A DNA stretch of 64,000 nt from positions 31,672-95,671 of the forward strand of contig CAYMEN010000005.1 of assembly GCA_964389325.1 (NCBI GenBank). The letters are read 5' to 3'. A model generated the notes under the pieces. That model did not search any database. It was not told the DNA's origin and worked only from the letters and a program-made list of their open reading frames with translations. Of the stretch, positions 3,813-32,660 are shown piece by piece. A program made the translations under genes and the position numbers. This DNA comes from an uncultured bacterium. Its GTDB lineage: Bacteria; Muiribacteriota; Ozemobacteria; Ozemobacterales; Ozemobacteraceae. Positions within the stretch are counted from its first letter, which is position 1. Each line of letters begins with the position of its first letter.

Positions 3813-5006
3813 TTGAGAGCGAAGACACACCACGTCTTTGCCGGAGTGACGTTTCTCCTGCTGGCTCTCGTCTGGCTCCACGGCGCCCGCATGACAAGCC
3901 TGCCGTCCCTCCGTCCCTCCCCTGCAGGCGATCTTCCGGCGGCATGGGAATCGGCCGCCAGGGCGCTCGGCCCGACCGGCCTCACGTTTCACCCCGCTTC
4001 TCACGGCCCATGCCGTCTGGAAGGCGTCGACGCCTCGGGCATCGTTCGATGGCACGCCGTTTTCAGCGCGTTTCTCTCCCCCCGCCCGGCCGGCTATGCG
4101 GGCCCCGTCGATCTCGTGGCCGGCTTCGACGATGCAGGCCGCATCACCGGCGTGCGGCTCCTTTCACACAACGAAACGCCGACGTTCGTCGCCGGGATCG
4201 ATTCCGATTGGTTTCTCGGGCAGTTCACGGGCAAGACGGCCGATGCCCCCCTCGTTCCAGGCGAGGACATCGAAGGCTTGACACACGCCACCGTCTCGGT
4301 CGAAGCTTTATGCCAGGCTCTTCGCCAGGGCTTTGCCGCCGCGAATCTCTCCTCCGCCCATCCCCGGCCGGAGGCCCCCGCGCCCGATGCACCTCGCAGG
4401 AAAGGCGTGCAGGCCAATCTGATCGCCGTCATCGTCTCCGTCATTGCGGCACTTGTTCAGCGCTTCATCGGAACCGGCCTTGCGGCGGCGATCGTCGTCT
4501 TCTCCCTAGGCTATCTTTCCCCGGCATACGTCTCCCTGTCGCATCTTCGCTTCCTTTCCGGCGGCTCGGTGTCCGTCCAGGCGGGCCTGATTCTCGGTCT
4601 CGCGGCGGCGGCCGTCGTTCTCTCGAGGCGCGGCTACTGCCGGCTTTTCTGTCCCTGTGGCCGCCTCCAGGACGTGATTCACTCGATTTCACCCACGGCG
4701 CCTTCAGGCTCATGCCGGCCCGGAGCAGGTCGGGCGCTTCTCTGGACGATTCTCCTGCTGTTTCCGCTGGTCGGAGAACTCCCCCTGGAGCGGGCGGAAG
4801 TCTTTTCGGCGCTCTTTTTCCGGAATCTCGGAACATGGGGAACGATTTTCGCCCTCTCGGTGCTCGCAGGCGCGGTCCTGGTTCCCCGTTTTTATTGTCG
4901 GAAGCTTTGCCCTCTGAACCCGCTGTTCGCCGACATCGAGACGCTCAAAACAGCTCTGGCCGTTTTTCGGCCGGGGGCGAAACCCGGACCGGGCGGCGCA
5001 TCATGA
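3813..5006 (+). CDS. Membrane-anchored FMN-binding-domain protein with two CxxxCP cysteine clusters (NapH/NosR/MauN-like)
   Basis: TTG start with AAGAGGA RBS. N-terminal TM anchor, FMN_bind-like segment (..AGFDDAGRITGVRLLSHNETP..IEGLTHATVSVEAL), several TM helices, and motifs CRLFCPCG and CRKLCPLNP typical of NapH-type ferredoxin-like membrane proteins. Confidence 0.65.
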   Translation: MRAKTHHVFAGVTFLLLALVWLHGARMTSLPSLRPSPAGDLPAAWESAARALGPTGLTFHPASHGPCRLEGVDASGIVRWHAVFSAFLSPRPAGYAGPVDLVAGFDDAGRITGVRLLSHNETPTFVAGIDSDWFLGQFTGKTADAPLVPGEDIEGLTHATVSVEALCQALRQGFAAANLSSAHPRPEAPAPDAPRRKGVQANLIAVIVSVIAALVQRFIGTGLAAAIVVFSLGYLSPAYVSLSHLRFLSGGSVSVQAGLILGLAAAAVVLSRRGYCRLFCPCGRLQDVIHSISPTAPSGSCRPGAGRALLWTILLLFPLVGELPLERAEVFSALFFRNLGTWGTIFALSVLAGAVLVPRFYCRKLCPLNPLFADIETLKTALAVFRPGAKPGPGGAS

Positions 5007-6217
5007 ACAGGCGGCGGTTTCTCATCGATGCCTGCACCGTGGCGGCAGGGATCAGCCTCGGCGGGCTGCTCCTCGACGGTCGGTCCAAAAGGGGCCCGAC
5101 CCCCGTCTCCCCGGAGCGGGATCATCCGGAAGGAGTTGCCGGCCGCCATGCCTATGACCGTGCGGCCGCCGAGGCGAAGCTGCGCAGTCTCGAGGCGGCG
5201 GGGCTCTCCCCGCGAGATGCGATGTACTGGTCACGCACCCCAGACGGACTGATCCGGTGCGAACTCTGTCCCCGTTTCTGCACGCTGAAACCGTTCGAGC
5301 GGGGTCTCTGCAAGGTGCGTATCAGCCTGGAAAACCGCCTCGGCACCCTCGTATACGGTCGCCCCTGCACGGCGGCGATCGATCCGATCGAAAAAAAGCC
5401 GGTCTTTCATTTTCTGCCCGGCAGCACAGCCTTCTCGATCGCGACGGCCGGCTGCCTCTTCGGCTGCCGCTACTGCCAGAACTGGCAGATCTCGCAAATC
5501 GGGCCCGAAGAGTGCGATTTTTACGATCTTCCTCCCGGGCGGGTCGTCGCGGATGCGGTGTCGAACGGCTGCAGAAGCATCGCCTACACGTACACCGAGC
5601 CAACGATCTTCTACGAGTACATGCTCGATACCTCGAAAGCCGCCCGCGCGGCCGGCCTGGCGAACATCATGATCTCCTGCGGCTACATCAACCCCGAGCC
5701 GCTCAGGGAGCTTCTTCCCTGGCTCGACGTCATGAAAGTCGACCTCAAGGGGTTCACGGAACGCTTCTACCGCTCCGTCTGCGGGGGAAATCTCGCTCCG
5801 GTTCTCTCGACGATCGAGCAGCTTTCCCAAAGCAAGGCCCTCGTCGACATCGTCACGCTCGTCGTTCCGACGCTGAACGACGACCCCGCAATCTGCTCGG
5901 ACATGTTCCGGTGGCTCATGGAGCACGTTGGCCCCGACATCAGCCTGTTCCTCTCCCGCTTCATGCCGACCTACCGCATGCGCGGCCTCCCGCCGACACC
6001 TCTCGACACGCTCGAGCGCCTCCGGGACCTGGCGATGAACACCGGTCTCCGATACGTGTATCTCGGAAACATCCCGGGCCATGAGGGGGAAAGCACCTTC
6101 TGCCCGGGCTGTAAAAAGCGTGTCGTCGAACGCTTCGGGTATTCGGTCGGGGAAATGCATATCAGCAAGGGAGCCTGCGCCTACTGCGGAACCGCCATTC
6201 CCGGCCGCTGGGAGTGA
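5003..6217 (+). CDS. Radical SAM enzyme, AmmeMemoRadiSam-system type (PflA-like), with N-terminal twin-arginine (Tat)-like signal
   Basis: ATG at 5003 overlaps the upstream stop (ATGA). N-terminus MNRRRFLIDACTVAAGISLGG is Tat-like. CxxxCxxC motif (CLFGCRYCQNW). N-terminal CELCPRFC..GLCKVR and C-terminal CPGCKK..GACAYCG clusters are typical of AmmeMemoRadiSam radical SAM enzymes. Confidence 0.8.
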   Translation: MNRRRFLIDACTVAAGISLGGLLLDGRSKRGPTPVSPERDHPEGVAGRHAYDRAAAEAKLRSLEAAGLSPRDAMYWSRTPDGLIRCELCPRFCTLKPFERGLCKVRISLENRLGTLVYGRPCTAAIDPIEKKPVFHFLPGSTAFSIATAGCLFGCRYCQNWQISQIGPEECDFYDLPPGRVVADAVSNGCRSIAYTYTEPTIFYEYMLDTSKAARAAGLANIMISCGYINPEPLRELLPWLDVMKVDLKGFTERFYRSVCGGNLAPVLSTIEQLSQSKALVDIVTLVVPTLNDDPAICSDMFRWLMEHVGPDISLFLSRFMPTYRMRGLPPTPLDTLERLRDLAMNTGLRYVYLGNIPGHEGESTFCPGCKKRVVERFGYSVGEMHISKGACAYCGTAIPGRWE

Positions 6218-6336
6218 GCGCAGCTTTTGCGCGACAACAAGGTTCTTTACCTTCCGGCCGCAATGCATTATATTCATTGCAGGGCTGCACGGGGAGCAAG
6301 GCCGCTCCATACCGCAGCACGAACCGGAGGCACGAC

Positions 6337-6981
6337 ATGACACAGAAGCAGCACGGCGAAGGCCAGGGCGAAACCATTCTCCGCAAGTATCCGAACCGCC
6401 GCATCTATGATGCGACGCGAAACACGCATGTCACGCTCGGCGAGATCGCCGATCGCATCAAGGCCGGCGAACGGATCCGGATCCTCGACCACAAGACGGG
6501 CGAGGACCTCACCCAGGTCACCATGGGGCAAGTTCTCGTGGAAACGCTGAAAACCCGCCCCGACTACCTTCCGCTCGACCTCGTCACGCTGATGATCCGC
6601 GCGCAGGACAACGTCGTCCGCGACTTCCTGTACAACGGTCTTCCCCAGGCCTTCCAGGGATATCTCGACCAGCAGCGGCGCCTGATGTCCGGCATGATGA
6701 TGAACCCCTGGCTTCCCGGAAGCTTCCCGACCATGTCGCCGTTCGGAAGCTTTTTCGGCGCCTCTCCTCAGCCCCAGCAGCCGCCACAGCCCCAGCAGCC
6801 CTATCCCGGCCCGACGGCGGCCCAGCCGGCCCAGCCCCCCACTCCGCCCCATGCGGCTCCCTCCCAGCCCGTCCCGCAGGCGGACGATTCGCTTCGCGAG
6901 GAACTCCAGAGGCTCCGCCGGGAGGTTGAAGCCCTGAAACACGCTGAGAAACCGGGGAAAGGCCGCCACCGCAAGAGCTAG
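6337..6981 (+). CDS. phaR: Polyhydroxyalkanoate synthesis repressor PhaR
   Basis: N-terminal PHB-accumulation-regulator DNA-binding domain (ILRKYPNRRIYDATRNTHVTLGEIADRIKAGERIRILDHKTGEDLT) and Pro/Gln-rich C-terminal tail. The ATG at 6337 is the first Met of the conserved domain. Confidence 0.85.
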   Translation: MTQKQHGEGQGETILRKYPNRRIYDATRNTHVTLGEIADRIKAGERIRILDHKTGEDLTQVTMGQVLVETLKTRPDYLPLDLVTLMIRAQDNVVRDFLYNGLPQAFQGYLDQQRRLMSGMMMNPWLPGSFPTMSPFGSFFGASPQPQQPPQPQQPYPGPTAAQPAQPPTPPHAAPSQPVPQADDSLREELQRLRREVEALKHAEKPGKGRHRKS

Positions 6982-7002
6982 ACTCCACCCGTTCATTCTG
7001 AA

Positions 7003-7035
7003 ACAGCCCGGGAGCTCCCGGGCTGTTCGCTTTCC
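7003..7035 (+). terminator. Rho-independent terminator-like hairpin after phaR
   Basis: ACAGCCCGGGAGCTCCCGGGCTGT stem-loop followed by a T-containing tract. Confidence 0.45.
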
Positions 7036-7158
7036 CTCGTGGCCCTGCAGCGCACGTTTCGGAGCCCATCGTTTCACGCGCTCCGTCTCGCTCACGCTCC
7101 CCGCCAATCCATCTTCCCAGGCAGATCCTGGCATCTCCAGCCCGCTCGGCACGATGAA

Positions 7159-7173
7159 TTTTGCATTGCAAAA
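7159..7173. promoter_or_regulatory. Putative PhaR operator: inverted repeat TTTTGCA-T-TGCAAAA (TGC-N3-GCA core) abutting -35
   Basis: Perfect 7-bp inverted repeat read directly. TGCN3GCA matches the reported PhaR box type. Lies 10 bp upstream of TTGACA. Confidence 0.55.
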
Positions 7174-7182
7174 TAATTTTGC

Positions 7183-7211
7183 TTGACACAATATCGTGCC
7201 GATGATATATT
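7183..7211 (+). promoter_or_regulatory. Sigma70-like promoter of phasin gene (TTGACA-17-TATATT)
   Basis: Consensus -35/-10 with 17-nt spacer, ~65 nt upstream of ATG 7279. Confidence 0.55.
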
Positions 7212-7278
7212 CGTTCATGTGAGACCAGTAAATCAAAAATTGCGAAATCGCATCGCACAATCCCAGGAGAACGAACCC

Positions 7279-7563
7279 ATGAACGCCTTCCACGGAACCA
7301 TGACCCCGTTCGCGGATCTCGCCGACGTATCCATGCACCTGTTCGATGCCTCGATGCGCCTGGCCGCCCAGTTTTCGCACAACGTCGAGAAGATCGCCTC
7401 GATGCAGGTCGAGACCGTGAACGAAGTTCATCGTCGCCAGACCGAGATCTCCAATCTGGTCATCGACGAGTCGCTGAAAGCGGCCCGGATTCTCCGGAAC
7501 CACTGTGAATCGCTCTTCAACCGGGCCATCGACCGCCAGGCCCAGACCGGGACCGACCGATGA
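7279..7563 (+). CDS. Phasin-family PHA granule-associated protein (paralog 1)
   Basis: Small alpha-helical protein, paralogous to the next two ORFs. AGGAGA RBS. Promoter plus PhaR-type box immediately upstream. Confidence 0.6.
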   Translation: MNAFHGTMTPFADLADVSMHLFDASMRLAAQFSHNVEKIASMQVETVNEVHRRQTEISNLVIDESLKAARILRNHCESLFNRAIDRQAQTGTDR

Positions 7564-7599
7564 CCACCCACAGACACAAGACACGAAAGGATCCGACCA

Positions 7600-7872
7600 A
7601 TGACAAACCAGTTGTTCGACCGCGACGAACTGCTCCGGCTCTCGAGGCAGGGGATGGAAAACTCCCTGAGATTCTACATGACGCTGACCGAGAACGCCCT
7701 GAAGCTCGGCGAGGTCCAGAAGGACACGATGAACGAAGCTTCCCGCCGGCAGATCGACCTCGTCAACAAGTCCTTCGAGGAGTATCAGAAGAGCACCCGC
7801 ACAATCACGGCCGGCTTCGAGAGAGAGTTGCGGAAACTGGCGGACCAGATCCAGCCCCAGGCCGCCCGGTAA
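7600..7872 (+). CDS. Phasin-family protein (paralog 2)
   Basis: Shares LFDRDELLRLSRQGMENSLRFYMTLTEN with paralog 3. Tandem arrangement. Confidence 0.6.
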   Translation: MTNQLFDRDELLRLSRQGMENSLRFYMTLTENALKLGEVQKDTMNEASRRQIDLVNKSFEEYQKSTRTITAGFERELRKLADQIQPQAAR

Positions 7873-7943
7873 CGTTCGGTTTCACACAGACGGCGATTCG
7901 AAACGCCTTCTCGATTTTGAATACAATATCAAGGAGAATACCA

Positions 7944-8234
7944 ATGACCCCGACAACCAACAACCCCCTGTTCGACCGCGACGAGATGATCCGCCTTTCC
8001 CGCGAAGGTCTCGAGAACTCCCTCAAGTTCTACACGACCCTCACCGAGAACGTCACCAAGATCGCCGACATGCAGCGCGAAGCCTACAACGAGACCGCCA
8101 AGAAGCAGATCGAGATGGTCAACAAGGCGTATGAGGATTACCAGAAGAACACCCGCGTCGTCATGCACCACTTCGAGAACGTCTGGCGCCAGGTGATCGA
8201 GCAGGCCGCCCCCAAGGCCAAGGCCGCCGAATAA
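7944..8234 (+). CDS. Phasin-family protein (paralog 3)
   Basis: LFDRDEMIRLSREGLENSLKFYTTLTEN. AAGGAGA RBS at 7931. Terminator hairpin follows. Confidence 0.6.
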   Translation: MTPTTNNPLFDRDEMIRLSREGLENSLKFYTTLTENVTKIADMQREAYNETAKKQIEMVNKAYEDYQKNTRVVMHHFENVWRQVIEQAAPKAKAAE

Positions 8235-8254
8235 TCCCGCTCCTGCCCCTGACG

Positions 8255-8292
8255 GCCGCCGGTCTGCCCAGGCAGTTCCGGCGGCTTTTCAT
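8255..8292 (+). terminator. Terminator hairpin after third phasin gene
   Basis: GCCGCCGG..CCGGCGGC stem followed by TTTTC. Confidence 0.5.
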
Positions 8293-8323
8293 TCCCGAAG
8301 GCGCCCCGCTGCCCACCCTCGAT

Positions 8324-8353
8324 TTGACACCTCCAGAGGGGGGCCCCTATACT
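8324..8353 (+). promoter_or_regulatory. Sigma70-like promoter upstream of phaC (TTGACA-18-TATACT)
   Basis: Read directly, ~70 nt upstream of the phaC ATG. Confidence 0.45.
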
Positions 8354-8424
8354 TTCCCGGCCGGTGCCCGCCCCTCACGCACCGGATATCAGATCCGTAC
8401 ACCCCAGGGAGGAACGTCGATATC

Positions 8425-9537
8425 ATGAGCAACCAGCATGGAGCAGCTCCTGCCCAGGATCCCCGTCTCCAGGAAGATCTCGCGAGGGCGCGGAAATTCG
8501 TCGAGTATCTTCAGCATGCCGCCGCCGTCGGCAACCGGGCCAGCGATCAGCAACTCGCCTCCCTCGGCATGGCCCAGACGCCCTGCCGCACGGTCTACAC
8601 CGAAGGCACCTGTCGGCTGTTCGAATTCGAGGTCCTCGGCAAACCTCTCGACGCGCCGCCGATCTTCATGGTGTACTCCTTCATCAACCGATGGTACATC
8701 CTCGATCTCCAGCCTGGCCACAGCTTCATCGAAGCCCTGTCGAAGGCGGGATACAAGGTCTATCTCCTCGACTGGGGCATCCCCGGCCCGGAAAACGCCC
8801 AGCACGGCCTCGCCTACTATCTCGAGAAGGTCGCCCTCCGCGCCGTCCGCCGCGTCCGCCGCGCCGAGGGCGGAACGAAGCTCACCCTGTTCGGCTACTG
8901 CCTCGGCGGCACCTGCGCGGCGATGATGGCCGCCCTGCATCCCGACGAGTACGCGAACCTGGTCCTTCTCGCCACGCCTCTCGAGTTCACCGAGGGCGGC
9001 CTCCTCACGCTCTGGACCAACAAGGACTCGTTCGACCCGAAGAAACTCGCCGACGCGTTCGGCTGCGTGCCGGAAAAGATCCTGCACGCCCCGTTCCCCT
9101 ACCTGCAGGCCAGATCGACGTTCGCGAAGCCGCGCATCCTGTTCGAAAATATTCTTGATGATACATATTTACAGAATTTCAAGGTCCTCGACCGCTGGGC
9201 GACCGACAACGTGCCGTTCCCCGGCCAGACGTTCGTCGAGATCATCCGCGACTGCTACCAGGAAAACCTCCTCTCGCAGAACGCCATGCGCATCGACGGG
9301 AAAACCGTCGACCTGCGGACGATCACCTTCCCGACGCTGAACCTGTATGCGACGAACGACCACGTCGTCTCCGTCGAGTGCGCCGAGCGGAATCCCGACA
9401 TCCTTCCCAACTCGAAAGTGACGAACCGGAAGTACGAAGCCACCCATTTCACCCTGACCGTCGCCCACCCCATCCGGGAAACCGTCTGGAAAGACACGAT
9501 GGCGTGGCTGTCCCGCACCAAGCCTTCCAATATGTGA
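8425..9537 (+). CDS. phaC: Class III-type poly(R)-hydroxyalkanoate synthase catalytic subunit PhaC
   Basis: 370 aa. Lipase-box GYCLGG. ILDLQPGHSFIEALSKAGYKVYLLDWG segment typical of class III/IV PhaC. Size is consistent with a two-subunit synthase. Confidence 0.85.
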   Translation: MSNQHGAAPAQDPRLQEDLARARKFVEYLQHAAAVGNRASDQQLASLGMAQTPCRTVYTEGTCRLFEFEVLGKPLDAPPIFMVYSFINRWYILDLQPGHSFIEALSKAGYKVYLLDWGIPGPENAQHGLAYYLEKVALRAVRRVRRAEGGTKLTLFGYCLGGTCAAMMAALHPDEYANLVLLATPLEFTEGGLLTLWTNKDSFDPKKLADAFGCVPEKILHAPFPYLQARSTFAKPRILFENILDDTYLQNFKVLDRWATDNVPFPGQTFVEIIRDCYQENLLSQNAMRIDGKTVDLRTITFPTLNLYATNDHVVSVECAERNPDILPNSKVTNRKYEATHFTLTVAHPIRETVWKDTMAWLSRTKPSNM

Positions 9538-9553
9538 AGAGGAGACGAATCCC

Positions 9554-9916
9554 GTGACGAACCCGTTTGATTTCGGCCGCAACATGATGGAACTCTGGGA
9601 AAAATCCATGACCGAAACTTTCGAGCGCCTGACGAAGGATGAGCAGTTCCTCAAGTCCATGAGCCAGGTCATGTCCCAGTCCCTCGACGTGCGCAAGCAT
9701 CTCGGCGGCCAGATCGAGTCGTATCTGACTTCGATCAACATGCCTTCCAAATCCGAACTCGACCGAATGCTGTGCTATCTTCAGCGCGTCGAGGCCAAAC
9801 TCCTCGACCTCGAGGATCAGTTTGCCGAGATCCGCGACGAGATTTCTGCGCTCCGCCCGGGGCCGGCGGCGAAGCCGAAGCCGGCCAAACGGTCGCCTTC
9901 CACAAAAAAGGCCTGA
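9554..9916 (+). CDS. Short PhaE-like (PHA synthase class III partner / phasin-like) protein
   Basis: 17 nt downstream of phaC. C-terminal P-S-K-S-E-L-D..L..L..VEAKLLDLE motif resembles the PhaE/PhaF-type segment. At 120 aa it is much shorter than canonical PhaE. Confidence 0.5.
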   Translation: MTNPFDFGRNMMELWEKSMTETFERLTKDEQFLKSMSQVMSQSLDVRKHLGGQIESYLTSINMPSKSELDRMLCYLQRVEAKLLDLEDQFAEIRDEISALRPGPAAKPKPAKRSPSTKKA

Positions 9917-10020
9917 TCTTCTTCCGACCGAGCCGCCCGGGCGACTGCCCGGGCGGCGTATTTTTGCACCATGTTTTCTCTGCCCATCACATTTTCCAAC
10001 GCAAATCCCCGGGCAGGCAT

Positions 10021-10069
10021 TGTGCATTGCAAAATATTTCTTGACTTTTTATTGCATTGCGGGTATCCT
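10021..10069 (+). promoter_or_regulatory. Promoter (TTGACT-17-TATCCT) with two TGCATTGC(A/G) PhaR-type boxes flanking the -35
   Basis: GTGCATTGCAAAATATTTCTTGACTTTTTATTGCATTGCGGGTATCCT. Same box as at 7163. Confidence 0.55.
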
Positions 10070-10105
10070 CTGCTCATACCCCACACGGAATTCGACAAAG
10101 GAGCC

Positions 10106-10456
10106 ATGACGATGGAAGCACTGTTTCAAGAGTATCTCAAGGCCGGCCGCGACGTTCAGACGTTCTGGGAGAACCGGATCGCCCAGGCGATGGACGAGTT
10201 CGCGAAGTCGCAGACGTTCGTCAACACGATGACCCGCTCGCTCGAGCAGGGCCTCGACATGCGCAAGATGTGGGAAACGAACCTCAACCGCTGGGCCGAG
10301 ACCTTCCAGCTCGTCACCAAGCACGAGCTCGACGAGATCAGCCGCCGCCTCTACGACCAGAACGCTTACCTCGACAAGATCACGACCCAGCTCGCCGACA
10401 TCGCCGGCCAGGTTCGCACCCAGACCGAAGCCGTCACCGGTCGGAATACCAACTGA
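10106..10456 (+). CDS. Second short PhaE-like/phasin-like protein
   Basis: Start at MTMEAL (ATG 10106), preceded by AAAGGAG. Shares the HELDEISRRL..LDKITTQL motif type with the 9554 protein. Promoter with two TGCATTGC boxes upstream. Confidence 0.5.
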   Translation: MTMEALFQEYLKAGRDVQTFWENRIAQAMDEFAKSQTFVNTMTRSLEQGLDMRKMWETNLNRWAETFQLVTKHELDEISRRLYDQNAYLDKITTQLADIAGQVRTQTEAVTGRNTN

Positions 10457-10660
10457 AGCCGGTTTCAGGAACGAATCCGCAGATCGAGAGCCGATGGAAG
10501 CAGATGAAGGACAGATGAGATCCGCATCCTGGAAACATTTGATGTTCGATATAATCTGGCAACTCAAGGAAAAACGTGTTCCAGGATTTCATCTGTGTCA
10601 TCTGCGCCATCTGCGGATGGGTTCTCGCAACAGATCCTCAATCGCCAACAGGAGGCGACG

Positions 10661-11746
10661 ATGAACGACACCCTCACGAAAAGCGCGTCCAGGCTTCTTG
10701 AAGCGACGGCCGCCAACATCGACCTCGCCGGCCGCATCATCGAGAAGAACCTCGACTCGCTCCTCTCCGCCTCACCTGCATCGCACGACGAGCCATATCG
10801 CGGTGCAACAATGGTCGAGGAGATCTTCCGGTTCGACTCGATGAAGCTCCTGCGCTACCGCGGCACGGCCCCGATCACCTGCCCGACGCCGCTGGTGCTC
10901 GTCCCGTCTCTGATCAACCGCGCCTACATCATGGACCTGATGCCCTCCGCGACCCTGGCCGGCCATCTTCGCGAGGCGGGCATTCAGGTCTACCTGCTCG
11001 ACTGGGGCACCCCCGGCCCGCAGCACGACCACCTGCCGTTCCGGTTCTTCGTCGACGAGCTCATCGCCATGGCCGTGCGCGAGGCGTGTCGCGATACCGG
11101 CGCCCGGAAAGCGTCGCTGCTCGGCTACTGCATGGGCGGCACCATGCCGCTCCTCCACGCCGCTCTCCATCCTGACCGCATCGAGCGGCTCGTCATGCTC
11201 GCCGCCCCCGTCAACTTCCATGACGAAGGCACTCTCTCTGCCTGGGCGCGCAAGGAGGCCTTCGACGTCGACACGCTCGTCGATGTCCTCGGACATGCCG
11301 ACTGCGCGATGCTCCAGTCGTCCTTCCAGCTGATCAAGCCCTTCTCGGGGTATCAGAAGTGGAAGAACGTGTTCGAGGGCAGTCTCGACTCGAAGGCCGC
11401 CGAAAGCATCGTCGCCCTCGAGGCCTGGCTGAACGACAACGTCAACGTTCCCGGCGAGGCGTATCGCGGCTATGTGAAACTCTGTTACCACGACAACGCC
11501 ATCAGGAACCGGTGCTTCGATTTCGACGGGAGCCGGATCGACCTCGAAAAGCTTTCCATCCCGGTCATGAACGTCATGGCCTCGAAGGACCACATCGTTC
11601 CGATCGAGTCTTCCCGGTTTCTGTCCCAGCTTGTTTCGGGACCGGTCACGGATCTCGTGATCGATGCAGGGCACATCGGCGTCGTCATGGGCCGAAAGGC
11701 CCGCGGCATGTTCGAATCCGTCGCGAAGTTTCACACCAACGCCTGA
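10661..11746 (+). CDS. phaC: Second class III-type PHA synthase PhaC paralog
   Basis: Lipase-box GYCMGG. LINRAYIMDLMPSATLAGHLREAGIQVYLLDWG. GGAGG RBS at 10651. Terminator hairpin follows. Confidence 0.8.
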   Translation: MNDTLTKSASRLLEATAANIDLAGRIIEKNLDSLLSASPASHDEPYRGATMVEEIFRFDSMKLLRYRGTAPITCPTPLVLVPSLINRAYIMDLMPSATLAGHLREAGIQVYLLDWGTPGPQHDHLPFRFFVDELIAMAVREACRDTGARKASLLGYCMGGTMPLLHAALHPDRIERLVMLAAPVNFHDEGTLSAWARKEAFDVDTLVDVLGHADCAMLQSSFQLIKPFSGYQKWKNVFEGSLDSKAAESIVALEAWLNDNVNVPGEAYRGYVKLCYHDNAIRNRCFDFDGSRIDLEKLSIPVMNVMASKDHIVPIESSRFLSQLVSGPVTDLVIDAGHIGVVMGRKARGMFESVAKFHTNA

Positions 11747-11781
11747 GTTCACCAATTTCATCCCACGTTCCTATGTTCTTG

Positions 11782-11818
11782 GGACCGGCTCGCAAGAGCC
11801 GGTCCATTTTGTATTTGA
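11782..11818 (+). terminator. Terminator after phaC paralog
   Basis: GGACCGGCTCGCAAGAGCCGGTCC followed by ATTTTGTATTTG. Confidence 0.6.
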
Positions 11819-11994
11819 TATATAATACGCTATTGTTCTTTCCACGTCCGGACAGGCTCCTTTTCCGGACCCCGACAAAACGAAACTCACGCCGGTCACG
11901 ATCCGTTTCCATTTGCAAAAATTCCTCTATATCGAATATGATCCCTGTCGAAAAAATGAAACTCCCTTCTTTCCATCACCGTCTGGAGGAGCCC

Positions 11995-13341
11995 ATGAGC
12001 CAGGATCTGAAGCAGTGGTCTGTTTTCTTTCTCGTTCTCGTCATCGCCTCCCTGCCCGCCAAAGCCATTGGCGCGGGGTACATGGTGCGTGAGCACGGCA
12101 CGACCGGCATGTCCAGCGCTTTTGCCGGAGTGCACACCGGCGCGCACGATCTCGCCGACACGTATTTCAACCCGGCGGCCCTGGTGCTCCACGCGCCGGG
12201 GGAAGCGATCGTCTCGGTGCTGCAGCTCGATCCGGACGTGCGCTTTTCCCTGAGAGGCGCCACAACGGCCGTCGGCACGGCGGTCGGCGGGTATCCCGGA
12301 GGAGAGGATGGGGCTCCCACGGCCACGATCCCGGCCGTCTACGCCTCCCTTGCCGATTCAAAGGGATGGCGGTTCGGTCTTGCCATGAACGCCCCGTGGG
12401 GCCTCAGCACGAAGTATACGCCGACCTGGGTCGGCCGTTACTATGCGATCGATTCCGAAATGACCTCCCTGGCGGTCATGCCGGTTGCCGGCAGACGGCT
12501 CGATTCGAAGTGGATGTTCGCCGCCGGGCTGAACATCCAGTCCATCGATGCGAAGCTCACCAACGCCGTCGATTACGGAACGATCGCGGCGGGGAGCGGC
12601 ATCCCGGGTGCCGCGCCGGCCACGCAGGACGGCGTCGCGGAAATGACCGGCGATGCCCGGGACGTCGGCTTCGTTCTCGGCTTCATCTGCGACATTTCCC
12701 CCCGGGACCGGGCCGGCCTCTCGTATCGTTCGGCCGTCCGGCACACCCTGAAGGGCGACTGCCGCTTCGGATTCGACGCCGCCGGCATGGCGGGAGCGAT
12801 GAACGCGGCAACGGGGCTTTTCTCCCACACCGGCGCGCGTTCCGACCTCACGACGCCCGAAATTCTCGGCATCGGGTACAGCCGCACCTGCGGCGCCTCC
12901 TGGACCGTGATGCTCGACGCGGCGAAAACGTTCTGGCACCGCTACGGCGGCCTGCGGGTCACTTTCGACAACCCCGCGCAGCCAGATTCCTTCACGGCGG
13001 AAGACTGGAAAGACGTCTGGTATACCTCGCTCGGCGCGATCTACCGGCCGAGTTCGCGGCTCGCCTGGCGCGCCGGCGTGGCCCGCGACCGCTCCCCCAT
13101 CCCCGATTCGCGCCGCACGCCCCGCATCCCTGGTTCCGACAGCCTGCAGATCGCCCTCGGAGCTGAATACCGCACGTCCGACCGCATGGTGATCTCGGCA
13201 GGATTCATGCGGATCTGGTATGACGACGCCCCGATCGATCTCCGGGCGGCTGACCCCGGCAACCTCCTGCGGGGCAACCTCTCCGGCGACTTCACCACCG
13301 GCCTCGACATCTACGGCATCCAGGCTTCATATATTTGGTAA
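11995..13341 (+). CDS. Outer-membrane FadL/TodX (OMPP1) family long-chain fatty acid / hydrophobic compound transporter
   Basis: Signal peptide MSQDLKQWSVFFLVLVIASLPAKA. GYMVREHGTTGMSSAFAGVHTG..NPAAL start motif. C-terminal aromatic end ..SYIW. GGAGGA RBS. Confidence 0.75.
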   Translation: MSQDLKQWSVFFLVLVIASLPAKAIGAGYMVREHGTTGMSSAFAGVHTGAHDLADTYFNPAALVLHAPGEAIVSVLQLDPDVRFSLRGATTAVGTAVGGYPGGEDGAPTATIPAVYASLADSKGWRFGLAMNAPWGLSTKYTPTWVGRYYAIDSEMTSLAVMPVAGRRLDSKWMFAAGLNIQSIDAKLTNAVDYGTIAAGSGIPGAAPATQDGVAEMTGDARDVGFVLGFICDISPRDRAGLSYRSAVRHTLKGDCRFGFDAAGMAGAMNAATGLFSHTGARSDLTTPEILGIGYSRTCGASWTVMLDAAKTFWHRYGGLRVTFDNPAQPDSFTAEDWKDVWYTSLGAIYRPSSRLAWRAGVARDRSPIPDSRRTPRIPGSDSLQIALGAEYRTSDRMVISAGFMRIWYDDAPIDLRAADPGNLLRGNLSGDFTTGLDIYGIQASYIW

Positions 13342-14404: not shown

Positions 14405-15373
14405 TCAGACTGCCGGCCGCACCTCGCAGCGGTCCCCCGTCGGAAGGGGCATCGGAATGACTTTCGCTTCCCGCGTCCGCCGGGCCGTCTGGCCGGTGGG
14501 CATTCCCAGGGTCGGAATGCACAGGACGACGGCATTGATGAGGCTCACCTGAATCTTCAACGCGTGCTTTTCCTTCAGTTCATCGATTTTCCGCGTCTGC
14601 TCCGACTCGAGTTCGCGCATCATCCTGTCGATTTCCTCCTCCTTCTGGAAGAAATACAGGTGGAAGCAGACGTTTTCACGTTTCTTCTGGAGTTCCCGCT
14701 TCTGGTCTTCGAGATACTCCTGGACCTTGGCGAGCTCCAGCTGGTAAGACTCCTCGGACTCGGCCTGCAGTTCCCGGATATGATCCTCGAGGGAGGATTC
14801 GAGCGTCCTGCATGCCTGGAGATACAAACGGACGAGATCTTCACCGGATTCCTGGATCGGAAGCGCGGGGTCGGGCATTTCGCTGAACTCGTTCAGATCG
14901 ATTCCGCTCAAGCCCTCCTTCAATGATATTTCGCGCTTCGCGGGGTCCGCAAGTGCCGAGTAGAGAAGTTCGCGGCGCTGGTCTGCCGTAACGCTGACCC
15001 GGAAATGGAACAGCACCTGCTGCCGGTAATGCGCCTTGCAGCCGCTGATCACACGCAGGTCGCCGGGCTGTCCGGACGATGAGGGAAGTTCGGGAGCCGC
15101 GGCGCTGAACAATCGGCTGACCTTGGGAATCTCCACGAGCCTGTCGACGATCTTGCGGAGCATGAACGAGCCCGAGCAGATCAGCTCCAGCTCGCGCCGC
15201 CGTTCCGCGATCTCGCGCTCGAAGGTGAAGTGCAGGTGCTCGTAGCCGTTGAAGAAGGCACGTTCCGCCTCGGGGATCTCGGCGCACCAGACGCCTTCGG
15301 AGGTTTCCCACCTGGAAATACCGACCTTATCCATGAACGAGAAGACGAGGGTCTGGATTTTACTCGTTTCCAT
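14405..15373 (-). CDS. Hypothetical coiled-coil protein (322 aa) co-transcribed with SNF2 helicase
   Basis: Overlaps the helicase gene by 14 nt. Central E/K/Q-rich coiled coil (EDHIRELQAESEESYQLELAKVQEYLEDQKRELQKKR). No recognisable catalytic motif. Confidence 0.6.
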   Translation of the reverse strand: METSKIQTLVFSFMDKVGISRWETSEGVWCAEIPEAERAFFNGYEHLHFTFEREIAERRRELELICSGSFMLRKIVDRLVEIPKVSRLFSAAAPELPSSSGQPGDLRVISGCKAHYRQQVLFHFRVSVTADQRRELLYSALADPAKREISLKEGLSGIDLNEFSEMPDPALPIQESGEDLVRLYLQACRTLESSLEDHIRELQAESEESYQLELAKVQEYLEDQKRELQKKRENVCFHLYFFQKEEEIDRMMRELESEQTRKIDELKEKHALKIQVSLINAVVLCIPTLGMPTGQTARRTREAKVIPMPLPTGDRCEVRPAV

Positions 15374-17507
15374 TGAAGATGTCCTCCTGGGCGCGGGTTA
15401 TGTCCTGATGGACCTTGAGAGCCTTTTCGAGCTTGTTGCCGAGCGTCTGGAACTTGCGCTTCATCGCTTCCTGGTTCGGCGACATCGTCACGATATCGAT
15501 GATGATCTGCTCGAGCGTCTTCTTCGAATGCATATTGCCGAGAATCATTTCGAGTTCGCCGATGATGAGGCGGAACATGTTGATCTTCTTGTCGAGTAGC
15601 TCGAGCACGTAGGACTCGATCGTGTCGCTCGCGCTAAGGTTGATGATATGGACGTCGTCTGTCTGGCCGAGGCGGTGGATACGGCCGATTCGCTGTTCGA
15701 TGCGCATCGGGTTCCAGGGGAGATCGTAGTTGACGAGCACCTTGCAGAACTGCAGGTTGCGGCCTTCGCCGCCGGACTCGGTTGAGATCAGGATCTGGTT
15801 CTTGTTCCGGAACGACTCGATGCAGGCATCCTTCTCGACCTGCGACAGCTGGCCGTTGAAGATCGAGACCGAATACCCCCGCTCGCGGAGCAGGTCGGCG
15901 AGATAATCCTGGGTGCCGCGGAACTGCGTGAAAATGATCAGTTTCTCGTTGAGATTGCCGAGCAGTTCCAGCAGGACCTCGGTTTTTCTCGACATGCCGA
16001 CGTTGTTGGCAAGGTGAAGCAGGCGCTTGAGCGAATCGTCGAAATCGTCCTTGTAGAAATTGCTGGAAATCATCTTCGTGAGCGCCCGCTTGAGCGCCTG
16101 CGTCGAGCTGCCCATCAGTTTCTGCAAAAGGATGAGGGTGAGCCGGTTGATGCCGCGTGGATTGTTGTGGGTCGGCAGGGTGAAGTAGCGGCGGCGGATG
16201 AAGTCGGTCAGTTCGCTGTACAGGCGCGCCTCGTCAGGTTTGAGGGTGATCGCCTGGGTATGGACGAACCGCTGGGGGAACTTGATCATCGTGTCGCTGC
16301 GGCGATGCCGGATCATGATCTCCGACAGCATGGCCCGCAGTTTCAGTGAGTTTTTCGGAATACGCTTGTCGCGCTCGGCCAGAAAGTCGCCCTTGAACTT
16401 CTGCAAGGTCGACAGATGGCCCGGCTTGAGGATCGTGATCAGGTTGAACAGCTCGATCAAATCGTTCTGGATCGGCGTCGCGGTGAGCATCAGCAGATAT
16501 TTCGTCTTGATCGAGTTCACGAACTTCCAGTTCTGGGTCTTCTTGTTCTTCAGCTTGTGCGCTTCGTCGATGATCAGCAGGTCATAATTGACCTTCTGGA
16601 CCGACTTCTGGTTCTTCTGGCTTTTCGCGGTGTCGAGCGAGGCGATGACCAGGTCGGACTGCTCCCAGTCGGTGATTTCGTTATGGTTCTTGAAGCTGAG
16701 GTCGAACTTGGTCTTGAGCTCCTGCTGCCACTGCGTGATCAGCGAGGCCGGCGTGAGAATCAGGACCTTGCGCACCATGCCGCGAAGCAGATATTCCTTG
16801 AGAATCAGTCCGGCTTCGATCGTTTTGCCCAAGCCGACCTCGTCCGCGAGCAAAGCACGGCCGTTGTATCGCCCGAGCACGCTGTGGACGGTGTTCAGCT
16901 GGTGCTGATACGCCGAGACGCCGAAGCACGTGGTGAGCGACATCAACTCCTGGTCGTCGCCGCGGGCGTTCATCTCCTCGCCCTGGAGAATCAGGCCGGT
17001 TTCGGCATACGGGGAGAAATCGCCGGCAATCAGCTTGCGAAGGACTTCGAGGTTCCCTGACGTATACTGGATCGGAAGGTCTCCGCCCGAGCGCATCGTC
17101 ATCTTGACCTCGTCTGATTTTGCGGCCAGTTTTTCCGCATCCGGAACGACGCGGTACAGCCGATACCGGCGCTCGGCCAGGCTGATCAGCTCGATGCCGA
17201 TCTGGTCTCCCTCGCGCATCTGGTTCTTTTCCCACCATTCGCCGAACGAGAGGCAGACCATGTAGCCGCGGGCCTTGTGATATATTGCAGAATACACAAC
17301 CTCGGCATCGTCGACGAACAGGATGGAACTGAGGTCTTCCTTGAAGGGGAACAGGCGGAGCATCTCGGGCGTGAGGAACAGGTATCCCTCCTGGAACGCC
17401 TTTCCCTTGACCTGGAACGCGACGCCGGCGTGGCCGACACTGTTGATCTGGACGAGCGGAGACTTGACGCCGCCCCCCCGTTTCACGGTCATCGAGTTCG
17501 TCATCAT
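15360..17507 (-). CDS. SNF2-family (Swi2/Snf2/RapA-like) helicase with ~190-aa N-terminal B3/EcoRII-N-like putative DNA-binding domain
   Basis: Motif I LADEVGLGKT, DEAH box LIIDEAHKLKN, TATPIQN, QRIGRIHRLGQ. N-terminal segment YHKARGYMVCLSFGEWWEKNQMREGDQIGIEL resembles the B3 pseudobarrel C-terminal strand pattern. Start overlaps the LysM gene stop (ATGA). Confidence 0.8.
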   Translation of the reverse strand: MMTNSMTVKRGGGVKSPLVQINSVGHAGVAFQVKGKAFQEGYLFLTPEMLRLFPFKEDLSSILFVDDAEVVYSAIYHKARGYMVCLSFGEWWEKNQMREGDQIGIELISLAERRYRLYRVVPDAEKLAAKSDEVKMTMRSGGDLPIQYTSGNLEVLRKLIAGDFSPYAETGLILQGEEMNARGDDQELMSLTTCFGVSAYQHQLNTVHSVLGRYNGRALLADEVGLGKTIEAGLILKEYLLRGMVRKVLILTPASLITQWQQELKTKFDLSFKNHNEITDWEQSDLVIASLDTAKSQKNQKSVQKVNYDLLIIDEAHKLKNKKTQNWKFVNSIKTKYLLMLTATPIQNDLIELFNLITILKPGHLSTLQKFKGDFLAERDKRIPKNSLKLRAMLSEIMIRHRRSDTMIKFPQRFVHTQAITLKPDEARLYSELTDFIRRRYFTLPTHNNPRGINRLTLILLQKLMGSSTQALKRALTKMISSNFYKDDFDDSLKRLLHLANNVGMSRKTEVLLELLGNLNEKLIIFTQFRGTQDYLADLLRERGYSVSIFNGQLSQVEKDACIESFRNKNQILISTESGGEGRNLQFCKVLVNYDLPWNPMRIEQRIGRIHRLGQTDDVHIINLSASDTIESYVLELLDKKINMFRLIIGELEMILGNMHSKKTLEQIIIDIVTMSPNQEAMKRKFQTLGNKLEKALKVHQDITRAQEDIFNGNE

Positions 17508-31415: not shown

Positions 31416-32660
31416 ATGATACTGACAAGACACCTTCTTCGAACCATTTTTCTGGCGATCTTCGTGTTCGTGGCCGGCTCGGCCGTTTCGGCTTCCGATC
31501 GGCTGTCGATCGGTCTGGAAGTCCTTGCGACCGGCCACCCCGACCTCGTCGCCGGGAAAAAAATCGCCCTTCTCGTCGGTCTCGCCTCCTACGATCAGAG
31601 CATGCGCCACACGGTCGATCGGCTCGCCCGCGCAACCACGATCAAGTCCATCTTTTCCGGCGATCCGTGGCCCCGCAGGCTGATCGAGTCCGCCTCCGGA
31701 ACGATACAGATCGACGCTCTCACGCAAGCGCCCGTCCGCATCATCCGAGACCCCCTGGAAAAGCCCCGGCCGGAGCAGCTGAACGGCGCCGAATTAATAG
31801 TCATTGATATACAAGACATTGGCATCCGGTTTTTCCAGGCCGTGACTCTTCTCGCCCAGTTTCTCGAACTCGGCAAGCAGGCGGGAATTCCCGTCATCGT
31901 CCTCGACCGTCCGAATCCGATCGGCGCCTCGAAAATTTCGGGGCCGCTTCTCGACGTCCAGTATCGGAGCAGGTTCGGCGTGTATCCGATCCCCCTGGTC
32001 TACGGCATGACGTTCGGGGAGCTCGCTCTTTTCTTCAACAGGGTTTTCGGGCTGAATGCCGATCTCACGGTCGTCGGCATGGAAAACTACCGCCGGAACG
32101 ACACCTACCGGGCCATCGGGCTCCACTGGGCGCTGCCGTCGGAGCATCTTCCCGACCCCGAATCGCCGGTTTACTACGCGACGACGGGGTTTCTGGGCGA
32201 GATGGGCATTTTTTCGACCGGCGTCGGAACGACGCGGCCGTTCCACTATGTCCTCGCGCCCTGGATCGACCCCGATGCGCTGATTTCGAAACTCGCCGTG
32301 CAGAACCTGCCGGGCGTCGCCTTCCTTCCGACCGCGGCACGGCCATATTACGGGCTGTTCCAGCAAAAGCGGGTGCCCGGCATCGAGATCGTCGTGACGG
32401 ACCACCAGGTCTATGATCCCGTGATGACGGGCATTGCCATTCTTCACGCCCTCTGGGCCCTGTATCCCGATAACATTCCGCTCTCGAACCAGACGGCGGC
32501 GGAAGGCGTCGACATTCTGCTGGGCGGTTCCACCATACGGACGGCAATCATCCAGGGCAAAGGGATAGACGAGATCCGCGGCCTCGTCAAAGCGCCCCTC
32601 ACGGATTTCCTGGCGAAACGGAAGCAGTTTCTCATATATCCGGAGGGGCACAAGCCATGA
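31416..32660 (+). CDS. DUF1343-family protein (NamZ-like exo-beta-N-acetylmuramidase family), secreted
   Basis: Signal peptide, then GKKIALLVGLASYD..IVIDIQDIGIRFFQAVTLLAQFLE..IPVIVLDRPNPIG typical of DUF1343. Confidence 0.75.
   Translation: MILTRHLLRTIFLAIFVFVAGSAVSASDRLSIGLEVLATGHPDLVAGKKIALLVGLASYDQSMRHTVDRLARATTIKSIFSGDPWPRRLIESASGTIQIDALTQAPVRIIRDPLEKPRPEQLNGAELIVIDIQDIGIRFFQAVTLLAQFLELGKQAGIPVIVLDRPNPIGASKISGPLLDVQYRSRFGVYPIPLVYGMTFGELALFFNRVFGLNADLTVVGMENYRRNDTYRAIGLHWALPSEHLPDPESPVYYATTGFLGEMGIFSTGVGTTRPFHYVLAPWIDPDALISKLAVQNLPGVAFLPTAARPYYGLFQQKRVPGIEIVVTDHQVYDPVMTGIAILHALWALYPDNIPLSNQTAAEGVDILLGGSTIRTAIIQGKGIDEIRGLVKAPLTDFLAKRKQFLIYPEGHKP

Follow-up and report, generated by a model that had tools for sequence, protein, structure and literature searches.

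Two divergent short PHA synthase genes, each beside a small PhaE/PhaR-related gene, in a probable PHA-storage locus of a Candidatus Ozemobacteraceae bacterium

Polyhydroxyalkanoate (PHA) synthases of classes III and IV have a short (~40 kDa) PhaC protein that depends on a second subunit. In canonical class III systems the two genes are ordered E-C, and the class IV genes of Bacillus are ordered phaR-phaB-phaC. The known partner subunits measure 20-40 kDa for PhaE and ~20-22 kDa for the class IV PhaR (PMC8312272, PMC8146576, PMC7137286), with a haloarchaeal class III subtype carrying a shorter PhaE of 20 kDa (PMC7137286). Here, a locus with two such synthase genes is described from a 64,000-nucleotide stretch of DNA (the window; contig CAYMEN010000005.1 of assembly GCA_964389325.1, forward-strand positions 31,672 to 95,671) belonging to a Candidatus Ozemobacteraceae (Riflebacteria) bacterium. 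Nine intact genes occupy positions 6337-13341 on the + strand, each with a GGAGG-type ribosome binding site (RBS) ahead of it: a regulator gene phaR, three genes for phasin-like proteins, the pairs phaC1-E1 and E2-phaC2, and a gene of the fadL family. The locus is probably a PHA-storage regulon that includes two separate two-component synthases of the short class III/IV type, controlled in part by the regulator PhaR, and each ~40 kDa PhaC would be paired with its own 13-14 kDa helical protein. All of the open reading frames (ORFs) listed in a preliminary description of this DNA are present, intact and on the + strand, in the order C1-E1 ... E2-C2 that it claimed, and inspection of the nine ORFs revealed no frameshifts or internal stops.

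The synthase genes are phaC1 (8425-9537, +; 370 aa) and phaC2 (10661-11746, +; 361 aa, with an alternative GTG start at 10595). In family assignments made with Pfam and NCBIfam models, both products match the class III PhaC model TIGR01836, PhaC1 with E = 9.4e-67 and 225.5 bits and PhaC2 with E = 2.5e-72 and 243.8 bits, in alignments that span profile positions 29-348 of 350. Both are ~40 kDa alpha/beta hydrolases with a G-X-C-X-G-G box, and the intact lipase boxes previously reported are confirmed as GYCLGG in PhaC1 (within FGYCLGG) and GYCMGG in PhaC2 (within LGYCMGG). The catalytic triad C159, D312 and H341 (PhaC1 numbering) is invariant in both proteins and their orthologues in a 9-sequence alignment, which also takes in Haloarcula and Rhizobium PhaCs annotated as class III. 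These last comparators came from a tblastn search of PhaC2 against plasmids, in which no annotated phaE was seen beside the Haloarcula and Rhizobium class III phaC genes. A pseudogene or frameshift in either copy, an outcome that the preliminary description had held open for one of them, is ruled out by the intact ORFs and retained triad. PhaC1 and PhaC2 are 34% identical, and in a neighbour-joining tree (which carries no support values) the PhaC1 clade of Riflebacteria and Wallbacteria, with orthologues at 59-95% identity, and the PhaC2 clade, of Riflebacteria only, form separate deep branches. On account of this low identity and deep separation, they represent either old paralogues or separate acquisitions. 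Thus, the locus carries two intact, divergent class III-like PhaC paralogues.

E1 (9554-9916, +; GTG start) lies 16 bp downstream of phaC1 and encodes a protein of 120 aa and 13.8 kDa, and E2 (10112-10456, +), upstream of phaC2, encodes 114 aa and 13.4 kDa, or 116 aa if translation starts at the ATG at 10106. E1 scores over the threshold of the PhaE family PF09712 (30.8 bits, threshold 25.7) in an alignment limited to profile positions 233-306 of 311, and it aligns to positions 235-321 of 324 in TIGR01834. In addition, it matches the class IV model TIGR02132 (PhaR_Bmeg; E = 1.6e-6, 28.2 bits, cut-off 148.4) at positions 23-105 of 189. At 13.8 kDa, E1 does not have the full-length PhaE architecture, which is 20-40 kDa in size and covers most of the 311 positions. 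In the case of E2, the relationship is seen through E1: the two proteins are 24% identical (E = 2e-11), and profiles of their orthologue groups align with an hhalign probability of 97.8% (E = 6.6e-13), identifying E2 as a divergent homologue (paralogue) of E1. TIGR02132 has no match to E2 at E <= 1 or E <= 0.01, and is matched by three other members of the E2 family (best E = 4.4e-5). Taken together, the alignments identify E1 and E2 as stand-alone versions of a module common to the C-terminus of PhaE and the N-terminal half of class IV PhaR. The placement of the small partners in the PhaE lineage, as opposed to among plain phasins, is therefore upheld by the E1 score and by the homology of E2 to E1. 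A 120-aa homologue of E1 (HOT26862.1) is named PhaE at NCBI, and the homologues of E2 are annotated as hypothetical. No description of PhaE or PhaR subunits below 15 kDa was found in the literature searched, and E1 and E2 (13.4-13.8 kDa) fall below every subunit size found there; on PHA genes in Ozemobacter or Riflebacteria, the only item in the same literature was a count from a genome-mining survey (PMC8312272).

Intrinsic terminators follow E1 (9932-9966, +; a stem of 11 G-C pairs, then a T-run) and phaC2 (11782-11815, +; a 10-pair stem, then a T-run), and because of the short gaps and these terminators the four genes constitute two operons, phaC1-E1 and E2-phaC2. The same C1-E1/E2-C2 core is found in three other Riflebacteria genomes, at 95% identity in one (L002), 81% in another (L004), and, in a distant metagenome-assembled genome (MAG; L007), at 59% for PhaC1 and 49% for PhaC2. 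The distant genome has gaps of 27 bp between C1 and E1 and 10 bp between E2 and C2, and its core stands without adjacent phaR, phasin-like genes or fadL. Taken together, these arrangements support two cognate C/E pairs and disfavour FadL as a part of the module. The proposed pairing of each PhaC with a small protein is borne out by the 16-bp phaC1-E1 gap and terminator, and by the 10-bp E2-phaC2 gap in the distant MAG. The mirror layout noted in the preliminary description likewise holds, but the PhaCs are not recent mirror duplicates: a recent tandem duplication of a C-E unit is ruled out by the identities of 34% between the PhaCs and 24% between E1 and E2, and by the separate deep clades of the synthases. 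Wallbacteria loci carry the C1-E1 type only. As a separate observation, a gene for a ~450-aa lipase-like alpha/beta hydrolase sits between phaC1 and E1 in other Ozemobacteraceae and Wallbacteria genomes (L004:3226-4611, L005:5437-6795). It matches Lipase_2 and PGAP1-like models, has an N-terminus that by eye resembles a signal peptide, and has no counterpart in the window; the product may act on PHA as a depolymerase, or hydrolyse lipids.

Proteins of the E1/E2 type extend well beyond this locus. When 1.84 billion representative proteins were searched exhaustively with a profile (E <= 1e-3), 373 clusters at 50% identity were recovered, mostly of 100-190 aa, whereas narrower word-indexed homologue searches reached close Riflebacteria relatives only. 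Among the best 150 of the 373 clusters, lengths have a median of 141 aa, with 106 members no longer than 160 aa; the class IV PhaR model is matched by 101 (best E = 1.2e-28) and the PhaE model by 55-58. With a hidden Markov model (HMM) of the family, a member is found adjoining phaC in nearly all of 17 related loci, the phaC-adjacent members coming from Riflebacteria, Wallbacteria, Nannocystis, another Myxococcales MAG and an uncultured bacterium. In two Desulfobacterales loci, the module forms the C-terminus of a canonical PhaE of 300-350 aa encoded beside phaC, and these long proteins cover positions 140-310 (L016) and 25-311 (L018) of PF09712. The distribution identifies the miniature subunit as a widespread, uncharacterised family that is not unique to this locus. 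The miniature E of the preliminary description is not a peculiarity of this DNA, with the family occurring beside phaC in several phyla. Two further arrangements within the family can be mentioned. Three to five tandem PhaE/PhaR-type modules occur in single long proteins (P0034, 371 aa; P0073, 1751 aa), and in an uncultured bacterium three E-family genes (+ strand for two of them, - strand for the third) lie just 3' of a lone phaC (L015:11002-12346).

The regulator gene phaR (6337-6981, +; RBS ggagg) encodes 214 aa, and its assignment is confirmed by a match to PHB_acc_N (PF07879; E = 4.5e-18, profile positions 1-58 of 61). The protein scores 70.7 bits with TIGR01848, for which the cut-off is 109, and has no match to the PHB_acc domain; the N-terminal PHB_acc_N DNA-binding domain is followed by a long low-complexity linker rich in glutamine and proline and then by a short coiled coil, and the C-terminus is basic. 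Candidate operators were sought as the core YGCRNYGCR with AT-rich arms, which is the Sinorhizobium meliloti PhaR consensus (PMC12542648), and promoter-like sites by a consensus scan scored as matches out of 12. A sigma-70-like promoter of the Phs1 operon, TTGACA-17-TATATT (7183-7211, +; 11/12), has the PhaR-type operator AATTTTGCATTGCAAAATA (7162-7175) 7 bp upstream of its -35 element, and a weaker core match, CGCATCGCA, at 7249 in the interval from the -10 element to the start codon. The -35 element of the E2 promoter-like site (10041-10069, +) is flanked by two PhaR-type operators (10023-10063), TGCATTGCA at 10023, which is 4 bp upstream of the -35, and TGCATTGCG at 10053. At phaR itself (promoter-like site 6246-6274, +; 9/12), a weak core match, CGCAATGCA, lies at 6259 between the -35 and -10. 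The operator palindrome is TTTTGCA-T-TGCAAAA, and the 14-mer TGCATTGCAAAATA occurs as exactly two copies in the window, at 7162 and 10023. The core has 24 matches in the 64 kb, 11 of them within the 7.4-kb island, and AT-rich arms accompany only three of the 24 (7162-7175, 10023-10036 and 10053-10061). No core match occurs between 8071 and 10023, so the phaC1-E1 promoter-like site, TTGACA-18-TATACT (8324-8353, +; 11/12), is without an operator.

The operator site is invariant in six promoters of four genomes, including the distant MAG (L007), where the flanks are not conserved; the 7162-type operator is kept in L003, L004 and L008, and the operator upstream of E2 in L002 and L007. In S. meliloti the PhaR motif is experimentally supported and flanks the -35 of phasin (phaP) promoters (PMC12542648). 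By its operators, PhaR is predicted to repress the phasin-like operon, E2-phaC2 and, by autoregulation, its own gene, with phaC1-E1 expressed independently. The presence of operators at the E2-phaC2 promoter but not at that of phaC1 suggests one constitutive synthase and one synthase that is induced by PHA.

Between phaR and phaC1 lie the genes of three phasin-like proteins, Phs1 (7279-7563, +; 94 aa), Phs2 (7600-7872, +; 90 aa) and Phs3 (7944-8234, +; 96 aa). Phs2 and Phs3 are 50% identical, and Phs1 is a divergent paralogue with 27-28% identity to each. Homologues of the trio were found in Riflebacteria only, annotated as hypothetical proteins of Ozemobacteraceae or Riflebacteria, and none has a precomputed Pfam domain. 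Phasin_2 (PF09361) is the family most often matched, always below threshold, by 11 of 37 family members (best E = 0.0055). The trio does not belong with E1 and E2, as a single family of all five small proteins is ruled out by an hhalign probability of 9% between the phasin-like and E families. A role in coating granules is a reasonable inference for the trio because of the size and helicity of the proteins, their position between phaR and phaC, and their PhaR-type operator.

How the parts may work together can be outlined from the observed gene content, intact catalytic residues, homologies, operon structure, and presence and conservation of the operators. E1 and E2 would each bind and activate the cognate PhaC, and PhaC1-E1, expressed constitutively, would start granule formation. 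PhaR would meanwhile occupy operators at its own promoter and at the phasin-like and E2-phaC2 promoters. The PhaR titration model is established, and by analogy nascent PHA would titrate PhaR off the DNA, which would turn on the second synthase, E2-PhaC2, together with the proteins of the granule coat. A more far-reaching proposal, which should be regarded as tentative, is that the ~100-190-aa proteins represent a minimal, ancestral PhaC-activating module that was elaborated into class III PhaE and class IV PhaR. Here, the Riflebacteria pairs would comprise a constitutive 'starter', PhaC1-E1, and a PHA-induced 'amplifier', E2-PhaC2, derepressed by release of PhaR. If this is true, Riflebacteria, Wallbacteria, Nannocystis and others would harbour a widespread, uncharacterised subclass of two-component PHA synthases.

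Several observations weigh against reading the locus as two two-component synthases with PhaR control. With regard to the synthases, neither PhaC reaches the curated TIGR01836 cut-off of 365.3 bits, and the conserved class III motif, R-M-E-x-W-I-x-D-x-x-D (PMC7137286), is degenerate in both. PhaC1 (VLDRWATDNVP) retains exactly only the W and one D, and PhaC2 (ALEAWLNDNVN) the E, the W and one D; the comparators L020 (RMERWVRDGVD) and L021 (RMENWLADRPD) both carry the motif. The gap between E2 and phaC2 in the window is 204 bp, and no phaA, phaB or phaJ is found among the window genes scanned, up to ~45 kb. For the trio, no phasin-family model gives a significant match, the best in the window being Phs3 to Phasin_2 at E = 0.015, and the 'three tandem phasins' of the preliminary description consequently find no confirmation in any family model.

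The low TIGR01836 scores and degenerate motif would also suit a locus with a single functional synthase, where the second PhaC and its small neighbour are cryptic or silent, or where the second PhaC is a PHA-related transacylase or depolymerase. The catalytic-His context of the PhaC1 clade, THFTL/GHLTV as against the usual GHVG, is similarly odd, and a likeness can be drawn to the extra phaC copies of Haloferax mediterranei, where multiple paralogues were once called cryptic (PMC12863089, PMC2939530). Nevertheless, this explanation is very improbable. Both phaC ORFs are intact, with lipase box and full Cys-Asp-His triad, each phaC unit is equipped with a separate promoter-like site, RBS and terminator, and the conservation of the PhaC pair across Riflebacteria, down to 49-59% identity, argues for purifying selection on both proteins.

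The remaining difficulties concern the small proteins. E2 scores 16.8 bits with PF09712, and the assignment to that family, suggested earlier as a check, therefore succeeds for E1 and fails for E2. The best NCBIfam match of E2 is PHA_granule_1 (TIGR01837, a PhaF/PhaI-type phasin model; E = 3e-4, below threshold), and E2 scores about equally with the PhaE and PhaF/PhaI-type models. Among the best 150 family members, 26 match the PhaF/PhaI phasin model PF05597 and 32 match TIGR01837, and because 26-32 of 150 relatives match a phasin model, a granule-coat role and a subunit role are inseparable by sequence. The AlphaFold2 model of E1, three helices followed by a disordered basic tail rich in lysine, proline and alanine, has low confidence (predicted local distance difference test score 71, predicted template modelling score 0.30). 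No fold match to the model was found in the PDB with Foldseek, and sequence searches of the PDB gave chance coiled-coil matches only and no PhaE or PhaR relative.

These matches bear on whether E1 and E2 are granule-associated proteins of the phasin type or of the PhaM/PhaF type, and not subunits at all. The PhaCs would then act as homo-oligomers, and the small proteins would merely shape, segregate or mildly stimulate granules. E2 stands behind the same PhaR-type operator as the phasin-like operon. PhaF and PhaM have DNA-binding tails, and the basic tails of the E1 family resemble them: the last 20 residues of E1 are 35% lysine and arginine (K/R; tail encoded at 9860-9916), and in 135 of the best 150 family members K/R make up 20% or more of the last 25 residues. 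By this analogy, the tails of E1 and its relatives may tether granules to the nucleoid; E2 is acidic and has no basic tail. Overall, a granule-protein role without a subunit function is unlikely, though it has more in its favour than a silent second synthase. E1 is over the PhaE threshold, the majority of the family (the 101 of 150 noted above) matches the class IV subunit PhaR, and the same module ends full-length PhaE proteins encoded next to phaC in the Desulfobacterales loci. Close linkage to phaC has been conserved, the gaps measuring 10-27 bp; the position of phasins is already filled by the three phasin-like genes, and the requirement of short PhaCs of classes III and IV for a second subunit also weighs against it. 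Thus, the reading of E1 and E2 as partner subunits of two separate synthases is preferred.

The last gene of the island encodes a 448-aa outer-membrane transporter of the FadL family (11995-13341, +), which matches PF03349 over positions 6-419 of 421 (E = 7.5e-65) and scores under the E. coli FadL equivalog cut-off. The preliminary description had placed a FadL porin at the end of the cluster and suggested a possible connection from fatty acid uptake to PHA synthesis. The gene is present as claimed, but the link is weak, with a terminator before fadL, a promoter-like site of its own (11913-11942, +), and no adjacent fadL in L007. As a functional part of the island, FadL would import fatty acids that, through beta-oxidation, supply one of the synthases. 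In favour of this, fadL directly follows phaC2 in the same orientation, the two genes are likewise adjacent in the 95% identical L002, and an acyl-CoA synthetase and a short-chain dehydrogenase/reductase (SDR) are encoded near phaC in a Wallbacteria locus (L005). However, the fadL promoter has no PhaR-type operator in the YGCRNYGCR scan, and neither phaJ (MaoC) nor beta-oxidation genes occur among the window genes scanned, up to ~45 kb. A fatty-acid-to-PHA route through FadL is thus rather improbable, and FadL is probably just a neighbour of the PHA module. The Wallbacteria locus itself encodes the acyl-CoA synthetase at 713-2395, a short PhaR of 149 aa at 2467-2916 and the SDR reductase, which may be PhaB-like, at 7319-8050; none of the three neighbours the island in the window.

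The neighbours of the island are unrelated housekeeping genes, a radical S-adenosylmethionine (SAM) enzyme upstream and a nitroreductase and SNF2 helicase downstream. The radical SAM enzyme (~5006-6217, +), directly 5' of phaR, begins with a twin-arginine-like sequence (MNRRRFLIDACTVAAG...), which is unusual for radical SAM proteins. Downstream, at 14405-17507 (-), a 14-bp overlap joins the genes of a 715-aa SNF2-family helicase and a 322-aa protein without a Pfam match, and the two may constitute a two-gene module.

Should the 13-14 kDa proteins prove to be true subunits, they would represent the smallest PhaE/PhaR part needed by a short PhaC, and would provide a handle for structural work on a module to which no matching solved structure was found. 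They would also blur the boundary between classes III and IV, and make compact two-gene synthases available to engineers. If PhaR does control the second synthase, it would be a clear case of a polymer product inducing the amplification of its own synthesis, in an uncultured phylum of anaerobic digesters and groundwater.

Compared with the class III PhaC-PhaE systems of Allochromatium vinosum and Synechocystis, the locus shares the short ~40 kDa PhaC with its GxCxGG box and Cys-Asp-His triad, and a second, non-catalytic helical protein that is encoded beside phaC and, in the case of E1, exceeds the PhaE Pfam threshold. In contrast, E1 and E2 are only 13-14 kDa and correspond to just the last ~75-90 of the 311 PhaE profile positions, both PhaCs are under the TIGR01836 cut-off with a degenerate RMExWIxDxxD motif, unit 1 is ordered C-E, and two units lie side by side. 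In comparison with the class IV PhaC-PhaR systems of Bacillus megaterium and B. cereus, the small family matches PhaR_Bmeg more often than PhaE (101 versus 55 of 150), the alignment with E1 takes in positions 23-105 of the 189 in PhaR, the Bacillus partner is also small (~20-22 kDa), and PhaC2 has the GYCMGG box. However, E1 stays under the 148-bit cut-off with a score of 28 bits and is about two-thirds the size of Bacillus PhaR, and no phaB lies between partner and phaC. Moreover, one report describes class IV PhaR as Bacilli-specific (bioRxiv 10.1101/693432), and the phylum here differs.

With the PhaR/AniA-phasin circuit of Alpha- and Betaproteobacteria, the locus shares a PHB_acc_N regulator and the YGCRNYGCR palindrome with AT-rich arms, located around the -35 of small granule-protein genes and at the regulator's own promoter (PMC12542648). 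It differs in that PhaR lacks a PHB_acc match and is under the TIGR01848 cut-off, the predicted operator is also found at a synthase operon, E2-phaC2, and the 'phasins' are a lineage-specific family. Some likeness exists to PhaF and PhaI of Pseudomonas and PhaM of Cupriavidus necator, from the weak PF05597 and TIGR01837 matches of E2 and many relatives and, more tentatively, the K/A/P-rich C-termini of E1 and most relatives, but the similarity is below threshold, and the proteins here are coupled to genes of short PhaCs as opposed to class I or II synthases. Because all components are relatives of known PHA proteins, the known PHA system is extended and not overturned; the combination is an undescribed variant of the class III/IV PHA synthase system, conserved across Riflebacteria.

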